DNA of 45,795 bases, from NCBI GenBank assembly GCA_038046365.1, contig JBBSWF010000063.1, positions 1 to 45,795 of the forward strand, given 5' to 3'. Made by a program: the position numbers and the translations under genes. Positions 3,899 through 45,218 of this stretch are shown piece after piece (position 1 is the first letter of the stretch; each line of letters opens with the position of its first letter). The notes beneath the pieces were generated by a model. It was given only the letters and a program-made list of their open reading frames with translations, did no database searches and had not been told where the DNA came from. This DNA comes from Nanobdellota archaeon (lineage in GTDB: Archaea > Nanobdellota > Nanobdellia > Woesearchaeales > JAGWAF01).

Positions 3899-3942
3899 TT
3901 ATAGTCATTAATTAGTAGTAACAAATCAAAAGGATTATATAT
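3899..3942 (+). promoter_or_regulatory. Palindromic box plus BRE/TATA, near-duplicate of 5136-5179
   Basis: ttatagtcattaattagtagtaacaaatcaaaaggattatatat versus ttatagtcactcattagtggtaacaaatcgaaaagtttatatat; TATA about 25-30 nt before ATG 3966. Confidence 0.65.
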
Positions 3943-3965: not shown

Positions 3966-4988
3966 ATGACTCTCGTTGATCTCGTCAAAAAAGAGGGCGG
4001 CCATGGCGCCCATTGTCTCTGTTGTGGTGATCCGCTCTCGTCAGATGTTCATGTCTGTCCGGATTGTGGCGCCCCATCCCATGGAGACTGTTGGGATTAC
4101 ATCGGTGGTTGTGGCGTGATGGGTTGTTCAGCTCGTGGCGCTAAGCTCGACGAGAAGGTCCGGGGGCGGGATGGCGAATTGGCAGTCATTGGTGATGTCT
4201 CTCTTCCTGCGGTGCCTAAGCCGGATCCTGCCAGGAATTACGATGGGTTCTTGGCTAGATTGAGGTCTTGGTTTTCCAGAGGGGGTAAGGATGCCTGGAT
4301 TGATTCGTATCTGGATGAGGTTCGATCTTCTTTAAAGGGCGTTCGTTTCGTTGAGCTTTCCGATTATGTTGATCCTCGTAAGGCTGTTGAGTTTTGTGAG
4401 AAGAACGGTGCGGTTTTGGCAAGTGCGCAGGAGTGCGCATTTTTCTCTATAGTAAATGACTTGAAGGATCATAAACTTAGAATGTATACTAGCACTTTTT
4501 CCTTCGGATTTAAAGAGGGTGGTGATTCGGTTGTTGCTTATGCTGAGGTTCCGCATAAGGACTGGCTGTACCTAATAGGTAAGATGCCTGGTTTGTTGAG
4601 TAGGGAAGATCCTGTTGTTTCATCAGCTATTGCTCGAGCGGTTGATGAGGGTCGTGTTGTTTCTGCAAAAAATGGTTGGAGAAGTGAGTGTTCTTGTGTT
4701 CCAAATGATGATCGATCTTCTGATTTTGATCAGGACGTTCATAATCGCGCGATTTTCCAGCGTGCTGCCAATCCATGGGGATTGCTGAGGTACCGCAAGG
4801 GATTGAATGCCATTGAGTATCTCATCCCATCTGGGGAGATCAAGGTTTTGTCGAATCGGCAGGTTATGTTCCTGCCTTCTGGCCTTGGCGACGTCGACTA
4901 CTACGACGACGTCGACGACGTCGGTGCCGTCGGCTTCGACGACGACGGCTGGGCCCGTGCGGGTAGCGTCGTCGCAAAAATTTCATGA
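3966..4988 (+). CDS. Prokaryotic RING finger (Prok-RING_1-like) protein with C-terminal DGR-type variable region
   Basis: N-terminal CLCC..VCPDCGAPSHGDCWDYIGGCGVMGC. C-terminal GLGDVDYYDDVDDVGAVGFDDDGWARA is encoded almost entirely by NNC codons. Confidence 0.75.
   Translation: MTLVDLVKKEGGHGAHCLCCGDPLSSDVHVCPDCGAPSHGDCWDYIGGCGVMGCSARGAKLDEKVRGRDGELAVIGDVSLPAVPKPDPARNYDGFLARLRSWFSRGGKDAWIDSYLDEVRSSLKGVRFVELSDYVDPRKAVEFCEKNGAVLASAQECAFFSIVNDLKDHKLRMYTSTFSFGFKEGGDSVVAYAEVPHKDWLYLIGKMPGLLSREDPVVSSAIARAVDEGRVVSAKNGWRSECSCVPNDDRSSDFDQDVHNRAIFQRAANPWGLLRYRKGLNAIEYLIPSGEIKVLSNRQVMFLPSGLGDVDYYDDVDDVGAVGFDDDGWARAGSVVAKIS
4881..4988 (+). other. Putative DGR variable region (VR); no TR or RT in the window
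   Basis: Eleven consecutive NNC codons at 4890-4922 (GAC GTC GAC TAC TAC GAC GAC GTC GAC GAC GTC), then GTC GGC TTC GAC GAC GAC GGC. Abrupt change from the T-rich codon usage upstream. Confidence 0.7.
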
Positions 4989-4989
4989 T

Positions 4990-5127
4990 CCGATAGGGGC
5001 GGACACAAATAATAGGTAGCCTCAGATATCGATAACTGCGCATAGGCGGGCTATAACCTGCGCAGTAGTCTATACGGCAAACCCACTATTCACCGCCTAT
5101 TAGGTAGGTGGCGGTTGTCCCCATCGG
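4990..5127. repeat. Structured intergenic element with nested inverted repeats; shares blocks with 41574-41601 and 44697-44712
   Basis: Outer CCGAT(A)GGGG/CCCCATCGG; inner ACTGCGCA/TGCGCAGT and ACCGCC/GGCGGT stems; GGCGGACACAAATAAT at 4998-5013. Confidence 0.6.
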
Positions 5128-5135
5128 CCCTTATT

Positions 5136-5179
5136 TTATAGTCACTCATTAGTGGTAACAAATCGAAAAGTTTATATAT
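5136..5179 (+). promoter_or_regulatory. Palindromic box GTCACT-N4-AGTGGT plus BRE/TATA (TTTATATA 5171-5178)
   Basis: Near-duplicate of 3899-3942. Confidence 0.65.
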
Positions 5180-5257
5180 TCAATCGTCTGATAGGATTAG
5201 TATTCTGGACCTTCTATCTGATACATTCATCCAAAGGTCCGGACTGGAGAAACGACC

Positions 5258-6211
5258 ATGGAACAAAACGTCAGGCAGGTTTGGTGGGGCCTTGCGGCCA
5301 TCGCTGCTGTCATAGCGGTCCTGTTGGTTGCGCCCATCCTTTCGCCTTCGCAGGCAGTCAGTATCGATTCAATATCTATGCCTGAGGCAGTCGTGCTTCA
5401 AGCAGTCACATTGGAGTCTACAGTCGACACGCAGGTCGCGTCAAGTGTCGCGGCCGATGTGTTTCCAAAAACGCCTCAGAAAGTAGTGTACGAGATCCCG
5501 GCATCAGTCCCGGCTCAGACCAAGACTCTGGACATCGAAGCCCTGATCGGAGCCTTTCCGTATGGTAAGGGAGAGAGTCCCCCCGTATTCCCTCACTGGC
5601 AGATAAGCTATGAGCGGAAGTCTATCGAGCTTTATGGTAACAAGAAGTTCGTATCAGCTGCTGTCTTCGATCTCGCGAAGTATGTTGGTGATATCGACAG
5701 AAAGACAAAGAAGCAGGACATCACAAAGCTTGGCCTTATCAAGGGGTTTGTTTATCCTCAGAACCAGGTCATTGACTGGCTCAACAAGGATTACAAAAGC
5801 CTTGACAAGGATGAGAAGAGAATGGCTGATGAGCTCATCGCGCTCAAGGTCGTCCAGAAGGACGGGGACTACTTCAAGTGGAACAAGCAGTTTGACGGCT
5901 GGCCGATCAATGCCTACTCGTCTGCTGGTGTGTTCCGCCATGAGCGTGTCCACGTCGTATGGCTAACCAACCAGGACTTCGCCGATTACTTCATGGAGGA
6001 TTGGAAGGTCGACACAAGTGGCATGTCAAAGGACAAGAAGGTCGATTATATCGTCAACTCTTTCAAGGGAGTAATTGGCAACCCTCCGCCTTCAAGGCAG
6101 TGGTGGACCGCAGTCTACGACCAGGTCGGTGAGGAGAACCTAGTCAACGAGTTCACTGCTCACAGCATCGAGAAGATCGATAGCTGGAGAGGCAAGACGA
6201 TAGCGCTTTGA
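5258..6211 (+). CDS. Membrane-anchored or secreted putative zinc metallopeptidase (gluzincin-like)
   Basis: N-terminal hydrophobic helix; HERVH (HExxH) and downstream NEFTA as candidate third ligand. Confidence 0.55.
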   Translation: MEQNVRQVWWGLAAIAAVIAVLLVAPILSPSQAVSIDSISMPEAVVLQAVTLESTVDTQVASSVAADVFPKTPQKVVYEIPASVPAQTKTLDIEALIGAFPYGKGESPPVFPHWQISYERKSIELYGNKKFVSAAVFDLAKYVGDIDRKTKKQDITKLGLIKGFVYPQNQVIDWLNKDYKSLDKDEKRMADELIALKVVQKDGDYFKWNKQFDGWPINAYSSAGVFRHERVHVVWLTNQDFADYFMEDWKVDTSGMSKDKKVDYIVNSFKGVIGNPPPSRQWWTAVYDQVGEENLVNEFTAHSIEKIDSWRGKTIAL

Positions 6212-6219
6212 GGTGGATG

Positions 6220-7041
6220 ATGTCGAACGGCTTGATCAGTGATGAGGACCAGAGAAGCAGCCAGTCGCATGAGGGGCCATCCTCCCCTCCAGGGGCCAAC
6301 CGCATCTCCAGGGGCCTTATCGCAGGCCTTGGTGGCCTTGCTCTGGTCATCGCTGTCGAGTCGGATTTTCTTGATTCCAAGAGAGACCATATACATCGCC
6401 CGATGGAGACCGCGAGTCATGTCGAAGGAATAAGCCATAGCACGGGAAGTATCGACAGTGTTCTATCAGACAAGCGCAATGCAGTGCAGACTTTCAAAGC
6501 TTGGGGAAGGGAGACAGCGCATGCGCTCAACGCGTCTACCAAAGAATCGATGGTCTACCAGGTCCCTGCTGAAGTATTATCCGGATTCAAGGCTAAGGCC
6601 CGGAAGTTTCCTTTGATATACTTTAGCGACCTGATCTCCAGGGGAAAAGGTCTTGAGAGGAAGATCCGCAGGGCCGCCACACCTCAAGATAGAGCCTTGA
6701 TTGATCAGGCAAGGAAGAAATATCCAGGGATTGCTTACGCGCTTGCGTATCTGGCCGGGGTCTCTGAAGGGCCTTCGGTCGGGTGGTATTTGGTCGGTCT
6801 GCCGTCGCGATTGAAGGACGCTGGACTGGTGTTCTATATAGGACATTCTCCTAAGGCAGGTAAGATTGTTTTGGCGCTCGATGCGTCATATAAGACTGCC
6901 GGAAAACCGGTCGCTAAAGCCTCTGATGCTGTGGCAGTTTTCGACGACGGCCCTGCAGAGAGGTACTTCACATCGGTTGTCCTTTCCACTATCTGTAAGG
7001 AGATCTCGCAGAGATATAAAAATAATCCATATGTGAGGTGA
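6220..7041 (+). CDS. Hypothetical single-TM protein
   Basis: Long ORF with GAGGTG SD before ATG 6217/6220; TM RGLIAGLGGLALVIAVES is shared with the next gene. Confidence 0.65.
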   Translation: MSNGLISDEDQRSSQSHEGPSSPPGANRISRGLIAGLGGLALVIAVESDFLDSKRDHIHRPMETASHVEGISHSTGSIDSVLSDKRNAVQTFKAWGRETAHALNASTKESMVYQVPAEVLSGFKAKARKFPLIYFSDLISRGKGLERKIRRAATPQDRALIDQARKKYPGIAYALAYLAGVSEGPSVGWYLVGLPSRLKDAGLVFYIGHSPKAGKIVLALDASYKTAGKPVAKASDAVAVFDDGPAERYFTSVVLSTICKEISQRYKNNPYVR

Positions 7042-7313
7042 ACATTATGTACTACACTAAGAACAATGCGTATCAGCGGCCTTACCTCTCTCGCCAAGGC
7101 GCTTCATCTGAGCCTTGCGGTTACGGCAAGATCAAGAGAGGTCTCATTGCAGGCGTCGGGGGTATTGCCCTCATTCTTGCAGTTGAGTCTGGCGCGCTTA
7201 AGTTCAGGAGTGAACAGGCCGAGACCACTGCCGTAGGCATAGGAGTCGTAGCCATCCTTGGTTGTGGCATCGGGATTGTAGCTGGCGGACTTGAAAGGGT
7301 CATGAAGGAGTAG
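7038..7313 (+). CDS. Small two-TM glycine-rich membrane protein
   Basis: RGLIAGVGGIALILAVES and VGIGVVAILGCGIGIVAGG; GTGA overlap with the upstream stop (alternative start 7047). Confidence 0.6.
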   Translation: MNIMYYTKNNAYQRPYLSRQGASSEPCGYGKIKRGLIAGVGGIALILAVESGALKFRSEQAETTAVGIGVVAILGCGIGIVAGGLERVMKE

Positions 7314-7317
7314 GATC

Positions 7318-7956
7318 ATGATAGGAGACGCTCGATTGTTTGATTCAAGGCGAGGCAGGCTCTCTTTCAGGGAGCTGATGGTTCTTGATGAGCATCCTGT
7401 TACTGGGTATTATGGCGCGCTTGTCGGTCAGAAGAAGGAGATTGCAAGCCATGGCATTGAGCCTCCGTTCTTTGCCCAGTACAGGAAGCTCCGCGAGAGG
7501 TTTGGTTCTGAAGGGGAATTCAAGAAGGCTTTTCCGGGTATGTCTATGGAGAAGAAGGCTTATGAGGTAGCCTCTAACTTTTTTCCTCTGTACAAGTATT
7601 CGGGTCTTGAGCGTGATCCTGCTTATTTGAACGAGTTGAATTTCTTGGTGTTTGGGGTTCCGATCTCTTTGGATCTTGACTGCGCCGCAAGGCACGCTTG
7701 CGCTGCTGAGGGTATGGGTGGCATGGTAATCGCAGTAGAGGTGGATAAGCCATATAGCCGCATCGAGTCTGTCAGGTCCGGGTGTGATGACACTGTCCTG
7801 TTGGTGCAGGGTGTCATCGGTCTTGAGGGCAAGCTTCGGGGTGTATACTATTCTGAAGGTGCTAAGAAGTACAAGGATGAGCTTGATGCTGCTTTCAGTC
7901 GTTTCAATACCGACATCTCCCCTCTCTCTGAAGTGTCTCCAAGACAGGGGGTGTGA
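7318..7956 (+). CDS. Degenerate ADP-ribosyltransferase-like protein, paralog of the next gene
   Basis: YYGA / ISLDLDCAARHA / GGMVIAVEV / LRGVYYSEGA align by eye with YHGT / VSAELGTARVYA / GGIVLGVRV / LEEVYWSRGA. Confidence 0.45.
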   Translation: MIGDARLFDSRRGRLSFRELMVLDEHPVTGYYGALVGQKKEIASHGIEPPFFAQYRKLRERFGSEGEFKKAFPGMSMEKKAYEVASNFFPLYKYSGLERDPAYLNELNFLVFGVPISLDLDCAARHACAAEGMGGMVIAVEVDKPYSRIESVRSGCDDTVLLVQGVIGLEGKLRGVYYSEGAKKYKDELDAAFSRFNTDISPLSEVSPRQGV

Positions 7957-7962
7957 TATATC

Positions 7963-8493
7963 ATGACTAAGAAGATGGACAGCGGATTTATAGTCTATCA
8001 TGGCACCAGCCTGAACATCGCTTTTGCTATCGCTTCTTGCGGAGCTATCCTTTCTCCTTTCGAGAGTGTGTTGATGAAGTTGATGGAGGCCAAGCGATTA
8101 TTGGGTGTTGATGTTTCAGCTATCAATCATGGCCGTTCGATCGAGGAGCTCGCTTCGCTCGTCATAAAAGGCAGTTATGGCCCTCATGAGCGGTTCCGTG
8201 AGAGGACAGTGTGTGTGTCAGCTGAGCTGGGCACTGCGAGAGTATACGCAATCCAGTACGATAGGGTGGGTGGAGGGATCGTTTTGGGTGTCCGGGTATC
8301 AGAGAAGGAGCTGAGTTCCTGCGCTCAGGGCTGTGGGAGAGGGATATATTTCGTGCCGTCTCGTCTCGACTTGCCAGGCCGCCTGGAGGAGGTCTATTGG
8401 TCTCGAGGGGCTGCCGAGGCAAAGGGGGTTGTCATTGAGAAGTTCTCGAAGTATTCACCTAGGTTTTCTAGTTTAAGGGCGATAGGTTGGTGA
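7963..8493 (+). CDS. Putative ADP-ribosyltransferase-fold protein (H-Y type)
   Basis: IVYHGTS near the N-terminus and VCVS-x5-A-x2-YA, typical of ART NAD-binding strands. Confidence 0.55.
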   Translation: MTKKMDSGFIVYHGTSLNIAFAIASCGAILSPFESVLMKLMEAKRLLGVDVSAINHGRSIEELASLVIKGSYGPHERFRERTVCVSAELGTARVYAIQYDRVGGGIVLGVRVSEKELSSCAQGCGRGIYFVPSRLDLPGRLEEVYWSRGAAEAKGVVIEKFSKYSPRFSSLRAIGW

Positions 8494-44396: not shown

Positions 44397-45218
44397 TTAA
44401 AAAGATTGGACAGGATCGTATCTCCACCTGTCGAGTCGGGTCAGCATCACCGACAGCGCGGTGTTCGCATAGAGGTCTTCATGGGTCAAGTAGCATACTT
44501 CCTCATGTCGTATAGCGCTTGCGAAGTTTTCCATTGTCCGCCGTCCGCGATCTTCGTAGTTGGTAGGTTGGATGTCTATCTTTCTTGTTGTGCTGCCGAT
44601 CTGTATCTTAGCTATCCCTAAATGGGCGTCAATGATCAGGTCTCCTCGCTCGAACCTGACCCCTGTCCATTCCAGATATTGGTGGGATTCTATAGTGGCG
44701 GACACAAATAATTGGTGATTCATTTCCGCCACTATATATAAAGGACACAACTATTCAGATCAATTATTTGTGTCCTTTAGTATAGTCTGCGTGAGCCGAA
44801 GAATTTGAAATTCAGGCCGTCATCGCGTGTCCCCTCGACTCGATAATTGGTCGGGCTGTCTGCGAATTTTGTCGCGATGAAGCGATTCTCTTAGCGCGTC
44901 GACATCGTTTGTCGTTACAGCAAGCGGTTTTTCTGCGAACGTGTGCAGTCCGTGGTCTATCGCGTCAGTCAGGTCTTGGAAGTGGAACTGGTCTGGAGTC
45001 GCGATTAGCACGGCGTCTATTCCGCTTTTGAAGAATTGTTCCCGGTCTGTCGACTTGTTGAGTTTCATTCCAATCGCTTGCTCAAATTCGATCATTCGCT
45101 CGTCAGACAGGTCGCAGAGCGCGTAAAGCTCAAGCAGAGATGATGACTTAGATGGTATCGCGTGCGATTGCAGCGCGTGCTTCCCGCATCCGAGTATCCC
45201 GTATTTGATCTTGTTCAT
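44397..45218 (-). pseudogene. Gfo/Idh/MocA oxidoreductase, split, with the middle missing
   Basis: N-terminal YGILGCGKHA..DAVLIATP..H..EKPLA at 44820-45218; C-terminal-like NFASAI..THEDL at about 44397-44695; hairpin block between them. Confidence 0.75.
44691..44880. repeat. Cluster of three inverted repeats with GGACAC/GTGTCC cores
   Basis: TATAGTGGCGGA/TCCGCCACTATA (44691-44736), TAAAGGACACAA/TTGTGTCCTTTA (44739-44779) and TCATCGCG/CGCGATGA (44820-44880). Confidence 0.8.

Follow-up and report, generated by a model that had tools for sequence, protein, structure and literature searches.

The closest described relatives of the 340-residue protein encoded at positions 3966-4988 of a Nanobdellota archaeon contig (JBBSWF010000063.1, assembly GCA_038046365.1; 45,795 nucleotides, the whole of which is called the window here) are the variable proteins of diversity-generating retroelements (DGRs), foremost among them AvpA of Nanoarchaeota (PDB 5IOO; Handa et al. 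2016, PMC5006420). AvpA is described as having a C-type-lectin fold with inserts of its own type and a short variable region (VR), which lies directly before an invariant last strand encoded by the initiation of mutagenic homing sequence (IMH). Targets of the AvpA type are already known in small groundwater archaea, and in the same account 3 of 22 groundwater AvpA homologues do not lie beside a reverse transcriptase (RT) or a template repeat (TR), i.e. are not part of a DGR (PMC5006420). Remote DGR targets are known as well, and are missed by large surveys (Roux et al. 2021, PMC8144416). The main role discussed in these sources for the DGR variable proteins of small symbiotic archaea is one in symbiosis or host interaction (PMC5006420; PMC8867640). 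The phage and bacterial proteins Mtd and TvpA, which are of the formylglycine-generating enzyme (FGE) type, follow the same logic (VR at the C-terminus of a C-type-lectin scaffold, template codons of AAY type, IMH at the 3′ end) but form a different fold subclass, to either member of which AvpA aligns with a Z of only 2.5-2.6 (PMC5006420). Lastly, bacterial DGR-diversified lectin-type domains have been described in fusion with intracellular modules (Kaur et al. 2020, PMC7159879; preprint 10.1101/2023.09.22.558884), with the TR either near the target or elsewhere in the genome (PMC7159879). The window gene resembles these bacterial fusions in joining a variable binder to an N-terminal intracellular module; it differs from those described in multicellular bacteria, which are of the FGE/TvpA type and carry vWA or nucleoside triphosphatase (NTPase) modules, in being archaeal, of AvpA type and equipped with a RING finger.

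An earlier note, made from the letters of the window alone, had proposed that the gene encodes a RING finger fused to a DGR-type VR, that it is a remote DGR target, and that it resembles an E3-like ubiquitin-ligase adaptor with a diversified substrate-binding site. The anatomy of that proposal (RING finger, lectin fold, loop of C-ending codons) stands, its current activity is unproven, and its ubiquitin part finds no support. The reading that best accounts for the locus, and which as a whole we hold to be quite probable, is of a cytoplasmic two-module protein in which a Prok-RING_1 finger is tied by a linker of ca 50 residues to an AvpA-like lectin domain of the DGR-diversified kind, the VR of which would have been written by DGR retrohoming from a TR of the domain family's own type. 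AvpA-type targets, remote targets and intracellular lectin fusions are each already known; the RING-fused AvpA-like DGR-type target appears to be a new combination. The parts of the gene are as follows, in window coordinates.

3966-4988, plus strand: open reading frame (ORF) from the ORF list, 340 amino acids (aa) plus stop, encoding RING finger, linker and AvpA-like C-type-lectin domain.
4005-4127, plus strand: Prok-RING_1 binuclear zinc finger, aa 14-54, with predicted ligands C17, C20, C31, C34, H39, C42, C49 and C54.
4128-4286, plus strand: linker, aa 55-107, poorly conserved, its columns variable or gapped in alignments, with no confident structure.
4287-4985, plus strand: predicted AvpA-like C-type-lectin fold domain, aa 108-340 (AlphaFold2 model, Foldseek and VIA-align).
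4872-4976, plus strand: VR homologue, defined by its alignment to the TR/VR pairs of relatives.
4887-4952, plus strand: hypervariable core, codons 308-329, of which 20 of 22 are NNC in the codon table.
4959-4976, plus strand: conserved, IMH-like 3′ end of the VR, coding for the last strand (A-G-S-V-V-A), with the motif GGGTAGCG.

The cytoplasmic assignment is consistent with a 19-residue hydropathy scan of the 340-aa protein, in which no signal-peptide-like or membrane-like hydrophobic segment was found (top Kyte-Doolittle mean, 1.04). A model of the whole protein, built from seven sequences, reaches a predicted local distance difference test score (pLDDT) of 40.3 overall and falls below 50 across the linker.

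Pfam gives no match to the C-terminal 240 residues, and comparison of the window protein, or of the profile of its domain family, with the sequences of AvpA and the PDB gave chance hits only (E 0.1 or worse). The relationship to AvpA appears at the level of predicted structure. Residues 108-340, modelled by AlphaFold2 from a 19-sequence alignment assembled with family members from other genomes, give a pLDDT of 87.2 and a predicted TM-score (pTM) of 0.86, and the sole long stretch of low confidence in the model (pLDDT <50; model residues 204-220, protein residues 311-327) is the NNC stretch. The top Foldseek hit, and the only one at E <0.001, is chain 5ioo_A, AvpA itself (E 5.9e-4, probability 1.00), to which VIA-align superimposes 188 of 209 residues with a Z of 15.2 and a root-mean-square deviation of 3.0 Å at 14% identity; the runner-up has a Z of 5.8, and the lower rows are mostly ordinary C-type lectins. 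Mtd and TvpA are absent from the best 50 VIA-align entries for the domain, and their VRs are described as about twice as long as those of AvpA and the window protein. The model supports the view, already put forward in the earlier note, that the C-terminal domain has a DGR-type C-type-lectin fold, here with AvpA-type inserts. The NNC stretch is the variable loop at the tip of this fold, before the final β-strand, and on the best explanation would bind the ligand. In both AvpA and the window protein a short VR of ca 20-27 residues lies just before the invariant last strand, and both come from an archaeal groundwater setting, but the window VR is at the very C-terminus where AvpA, as described, has a 46-residue tail after its VR, and AvpA has no RING finger (PMC5006420). 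Clusters from the ESM Atlas (archaeal ones, score 0.90, and one carrying Lcl_C, 0.78) were kept as leads only and are not used as evidence.

At the level of codons, the loop stands out sharply from the rest of the gene. Codons 308-319 (4887-4922) are 12 consecutive NNC codons, followed by a GGT and then by eight more in codons 321-328 (4926-4949), so that the NNC-rich 3′ end first seen in the window is confirmed with runs of 12 and 8 rather than 11 and 7. C-ending codons make up 20 of 22 in the stretch vs 52 of 302 in the gene body (Fisher p 1.4e-12). The best 21-codon window of the gene has 20 such codons, a value reached by only 4 of the genome's 7599 stop-to-stop ORFs of 80 aa or more; of the other three, one is the paralogue of the window gene, and the remaining two are short frames that are probably non-coding. 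GAC and GTC together account for 14 of the 22 codons of the core.

Two near relatives allow this stretch to be compared with its surroundings, one a full-length paralogue on contig C138 (81% protein identity) and the other a syntenic orthologue on L025, a 17.4-kb metagenome contig (68%). Against the C138 copy the DNA is identical at 834 of 926 positions in the body of the gene (90%) and at only 39 of 75 in the VR (52%), and against L025 at 692 of 915 (76%) and 50 of 75, respectively. Both nevertheless keep the excess of NNC codons (20 of 23 in C138 and 22 of 25 in L025). In other words, the orthologues are 24% diverged in the DNA of the gene body and yet have the NNC pattern intact, which argues for rewriting after the two lineages split, although selection could also have maintained it. 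The DNA of positions 4959-4976 is identical in L025 and differs by one base in C138, despite protein identities of 68-81%. A GGGTAG-type motif also ends the VRs of the targets of the one DGR assembled in this genome (on contig C83, see below) and of the family member in genome G100, whose TRs read GAATAG, and the conserved GC-rich 3′ end of the window VR may act as an IMH.

The paralogue on C138 is one of four copies of the lectin domain in this genome (C63, which is the window, C138, C135 and C130), as found by local phmmer and local profile searches of all genome ORFs. The C135 copy, on the minus strand, has a TGA at the position of Trp200 in the other copies and its contig ends ca 30 nt beyond, which makes it a pseudogene or else an artefact of the contig end. 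The C130 copy begins at the contig edge, with the result that its N-terminus is not covered. Some 900 nt downstream of this fragment (minus strand, oriented 1399-2898) is an ORF of ca 500 aa, unrelated to the RING proteins except for its last ca 40 residues, which form a VR-type module with several AAC/AAT codons; at least two protein architectures of this genome thus carry the module.

Beyond this genome the domain is not widespread, a HMMER pass with residues 95-340 against 1.84 billion representatives giving eight proteins at E up to 0.001, and a word-indexed search giving three clusters. A profile of the domain, run against 400 other genomes sampled from the phylum, found members in 13, and 10 of these belong to one taxonomic family. 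All members have the same C-terminal module, consisting of (I/L)VRPVGLG, ca 20 mostly NNC codons and then GRARG. That DGRs do target this family is shown by genomes G100 and G333, in which members stand beside a TR and an RT, with differences concentrated at the adenines of the template. In G100 the family member is followed by the TR and, ca 330 nt past it, by an RVT_1 (RT) gene; here the VR departs from the TR at 15 of 95 positions, and 14 of these are TR adenines. In G333 the adjacent (cis) VR differs from its TR at 15 of 100 positions, 13 at TR adenines, while two remote VRs in paralogues on other contigs have 20 mismatches (16 at adenines) and 18 (16 at adenines). What the window gene has in common with these members is the C-terminal motif, the scaffold codons, a loop rich in NNC codons and a VR ending of GGGTAG type; it differs from them in that they have a cognate TR and RT within ca 1 kb and no RING finger, whereas it has the RING finger and no detectable TR.

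It is the comparison of the window VR with the G100 TR that ties the two together, since 50 of 62 non-adenine positions of that template are kept in the window and only 9 of 32 adenine positions, and the fixed scaffold codons of the domain family are retained. The window VR is recognisable as one of DGR type without its own template, by means of its fold, its local NNC excess and its adenine-specific divergence from the TR of a relative.

The genome does contain a DGR, although not one that matches this VR. Its sole RVT_1 match is on contig C83, and the earlier statement that the window holds no RT or TR is correct. The region C83:7096-9760 (locus L010) appears to be a complete DGR, with an AvpA-family target and its VR, an AAC-rich TR, and an RT with a C-terminal HTH_40 domain.

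C83:8161-8250: the C83 TR, AAC-rich, which precedes the RVT_1 gene.

This TR differs from the adjacent (cis) VR by 19 mismatches, 18 of them at adenines, from a VR on C136 (minus strand, oriented position ~45545) by 16, with 14 at adenines, and from a VR on C5 (C5:732) by 21, with 15 at adenines. As it matches VRs on two other contigs, the C83 DGR acts on remote targets, in keeping with the expectation in the earlier note that such DGRs occur in DPANN archaea. As 6 of the 21 mismatches of the C5 VR fall outside adenines, this copy may be rewritten less frequently. The C83 targets belong to the classical AvpA family, with a sequence match to AvpA at E 0.01 of the kind that the window protein lacks, and relatives of the C83 target carry DPANN-type source names. 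Between the C83 target and the window protein there is no similarity (best E 0.49). Over the 68 non-adenine positions of the C83 TR any other site scores 40 at most, against 57-64 for the true targets, and the window VR is not among the best. In other words, the C83 TR does not match the window VR, which belongs to a different target family.

Turning to the N-terminal module, the Cys/His pattern recognised in the earlier note is indeed that of Prok-RING_1 (PF14446), the profile matching aa 14-49 with an E of 2.1e-7 and 31.2 bits against a curated gathering cut-off of 29.1; a six-frame search gives 35.5 bits at 4005-4112. All eight Cys/His ligands are invariant in a four-sequence alignment reaching 40% identity, zinc binding as such being a prediction. 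In scoring above the curated cut-off and in keeping the eight ligands the window gene is like the rest of the Prok-RING_1 family, and it differs from it in the lectin fusion, which is common to three of the six Prok-RING_1 ORFs in this genome (C63, C138 and C135); the other three (C94, C141 and C67) have unrelated C-terminal parts. The distant RING-fused relatives P0005 and P0007 are 24-39% identical. No RING-fused relative was found in the public genome-contig collection and one, L025, in the metagenome-contig collection, and in other genomes the N-terminus of family members is mostly a coiled coil, without a RING. In the papers searched, nothing connects the Prok-RING_1 family, or a RING finger, with DGR targets, although a prior listing is possible, for instance in survey supplements.

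The suggestion of an E3-like adaptor, in which the lectin loop would pick targets and the RING would recruit an E2-like enzyme, depends on whether partners for such a ligase exist in the cell. In the 86%-complete genome UQ_con (the E2 search did not extend to prokaryote-specific families) has zero matches with E values as high as 1, ThiF reaches at best 18.1 bits against a cut-off of 28.1, and ubiquitin at best 11.8 bits against 25.4; likewise, Pfam gives no match in the five ORFs neighbouring the RING gene, such that no E1, E2 or ubiquitin genes are adjacent. Taken with the coiled coil that stands in place of the RING in most family members, these results make the adaptor very improbable, in spite of the above-cut-off RING match, of the absence of a signal peptide or membrane segment, which points to a binder working inside the cell, and of two bacterial precedents, namely RING-type E3s in operons for ubiquitin-like conjugation (Kaur et al. 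2020, PMC7159879) and intracellular conflict-system proteins fused to DGR-diversified lectin-type domains (PMC7159879). Given the lack of UQ_con, of above-cut-off ThiF or ubiquitin matches and of Pfam matches in the neighbours, the finger is better read as a zinc-dependent docking or dimerisation module than as a ubiquitin ligase.

The preferred reading of the VR can now be set out as a mechanism. DGR mutagenic retrohoming would have written the ca 22 codons before the final β-strand, in that a cDNA made from an AAC-rich TR, with random bases opposite the template adenines, replaced the stretch, the conserved GC-rich IMH-like 3′ end serving as the homing anchor. The template would have been of the domain family's own type, as in G100 and G333, and not the C83 TR, and it would now either lie in the unassembled part of the genome or have been lost recently. 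That retrohoming wrote the window VR we infer from its sequence; whether the VR is orphaned and now static or is still being rewritten is nearly balanced, with the former only slightly favoured.

Several results weigh against this reading or limit it. Adenine-tolerant scans of the 184 contigs for the cognate TR, made with the window VR and with the C138 VR, whole and as pieces of 40-60 nt, found only A-rich, low-complexity DNA (best site, 82 of 100 positions allowed and only 38 exact). An AAC-rich site followed by the TR-type GGAATAG end occurs in the whole assembly only as the C83 TR, with no match to the window. There is no TR on the 17.4-kb orthologous contig L025, and TR-compatible patterns found nothing real in public collections of viral contigs and genome contigs, which leave out this genome itself. 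The adenine-only copy beside an RT that the earlier note would have had the genome contain was, in short, not found in the 86%-complete assembly, and what stands of the remote-target claim is that family and footprint are of DGR type and that the genome has a remote-acting DGR. The VRs, as cut, run to 22 codons in the window, 23 in C138 and 25 in L025, with gaps in the alignment, so that a single TR could account for all three only if indels followed; otherwise separate TRs must be assumed. The footprint itself is also no proof of current activity, since it persists in near-complete genomes where no RVT_1 match is found. RVT_1 is matched in 6 of the 13 genomes with family members and in none of the other 7, which are 92-100% complete and of which some have pristine NNC loops and others decayed ones. 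The G176 genome, 99% complete and with no RVT_1 match, illustrates both, in that the NNC loops of two of its three tandem members (C2:137278-144250; loci L045, L027 and L041) are pristine and equally long and that of the third is decayed, which points either to a DGR lost not long ago or to one provided from beyond the bin. Finally, the region looks static. At the level of contigs, rather than raw reads, positions 4779-5200 are spanned by one contig in each of four groundwater runs (four studies, record years 2019-2025) with no differences, and all 40 differences listed, of 46, fall at 4085-4772 and are read as contigs of the paralogue; in a collection of 15 billion proteins, 10 records in three 90% clusters extend as far as the VR (window type, 4; C138 type, 3; L025 type, 3), and within each cluster their VRs do not differ. 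The last two observations are weak, since the true C83 DGR targets show no more variation: the two records of the adjacent target that extend into the VR are identical, as are 4 of 5 for the C5-type target, while the fifth of these diverges shortly before the VR and stops short, probably as an assembly artefact. Contig and protein data cannot in this way tell a live VR from a frozen one, and the static VR was accordingly set aside as evidence of inactivity.

Three candidate templates were rejected. A pattern match on viral contig L052 is a poly-(AAC) tract in a giant-virus bin and hence a false positive, a longer pattern matching nothing; the ca 500-aa ORF on C130 is coding, and differs from the L025 VR about equally at non-adenines and adenines; and the contigs that add depth over 4881-4974 in the four runs match only at ~4910-4947, diverge on both sides and are unlike a TR.

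Alternatives to an orphaned VR must be judged against this record. The nearest to the preferred reading is that the gene is a live remote target, still rewritten at 4887-4952 by a second TR, with or without its own RT, in the ca 14% of the genome that is unassembled or unbinned; this we regard as a serious possibility, if somewhat improbable. The assembly, of 2.02 Mb in 184 contigs, is only 86% complete, and DGR loci seem to be breakpoints of assembly, given RT matches at the very starts of contigs in two other genomes (G082:C20:47-325, G082:C15:47-325 and G003:C10:57-482), which bears on the missing TRs; G333 has two RTs, so that two DGRs per genome would be normal in this order; and the paralogue on C135 runs off the end of its contig. 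To this may be added that the window VR, with its 20 of 22 NNC codons, is at the pristine end of the family range, like VRs with a proven TR, and that the 22 of 25 kept by L025 at 76% body identity point to rewriting after the split. What keeps the live target below the preferred reading is that its TR was absent from every search run, that the VR is identical in the contigs of four runs and in 4 of 4 cluster records, with the control static too, and that the two paralogues differ in VR length.

A quite different account would dispense with the retroelement altogether, taking the stretch for a GAC/GTC-rich low-complexity tail that varies by slippage or positive selection, the NNC periodicity being a by-product. 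The 14 GAC and GTC codons among the 22, the short internal repetition, the difference in length between paralogues and the missing TR would all fit such a tail. It is very unlikely, however, because the stretch occupies the exact place of the family's proven VRs, keeps the family's scaffold codons and TR-type 3′ end, diverges from the G100 TR chiefly at adenines, and sits in the fold of a DGR variable protein. As for the possibility that the C83 DGR itself rewrites the window VR, by its own RT and the similar GGGTAG-type end, it is true that GGGTAGCG is common to the VR ends of the C83 targets and the window, and that this DGR already serves two remote targets; outside GGGTAGCG, however, its TR and the window VR are not alignable, and with the window absent from the best-scoring sites and the target proteins without similarity, as given above, this is highly improbable. 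The reading of a VR written by a TR of the family's own type is the one carried forward here.

The surroundings of the gene contain several repeated elements.

3899-3942, plus strand: upstream element of 44 nt, with a TATA-like run at its end, ca 25 nt before the ATG.
4987-5017 (partial copy) and 44686-44780: element of ca 90 nt resembling a miniature inverted-repeat transposable element (MITE), with two internal hairpin arms.
5025-5075: dispersed repeat of ca 50 nt with an 8-bp stem, and with seven other genome copies at 84-92% identity.

A second copy of the 44-nt element, 86% identical, is found at 5136-5179 upstream of the next gene, and the pair may represent a putative shared archaeal promoter. 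The hairpins reported in the earlier note after the NNC end exist as inverted repeats, but shuffled sequence folds just as well (z 0.08 for 4955-5025 and z -0.43 for 5015-5135), and they are part of dispersed repeats; the downstream stem conserved with L025 is of 3 bp only. The 16-nt core of the MITE-like element occurs at 26 genome sites with up to 2 mismatches, 2 of the 26 being without the rest of the element, and its copies are mostly intergenic, right after stop codons. The 5025-5075 repeat shows 3- to 5-fold extra contig depth in four of four runs. Further downstream, at 5258-8493, are four or five ORFs with no Pfam match, some with N-terminal hydrophobic stretches, the order and similar sizes of which are kept beside the orthologue (L025:9712-12988), giving a conserved block of unknown function.

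As to what the gene means for its family, targets without a detectable template or RT are common in it, 7 of the 13 genomes with members having no RVT_1 match. In practical terms, fold, local NNC excess and adenine-specific divergence from the TR of a related genome together make it possible to recognise a DGR target whose template is missing. For the organism, it is conceivable, though distinctly unlikely, that the protein is an intracellular, DGR-programmable recognition device, in which the lectin loop would capture changing targets, for example virus or host-cell proteins, and the RING would couple them to tagging, sequestration or degradation; if so, it would be an archaeal counterpart of the immune proteins that pair a RING with a variable binder, kept current by a retroelement rather than by germline diversity. 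More generally, the lack of an export signal in the window version, together with its RING-type zinc finger, points to use inside the cell, and if the protein is indeed intracellular it would link retroelement diversification in an archaeon to intracellular recognition, which has so far been proposed only for multicellular bacteria.

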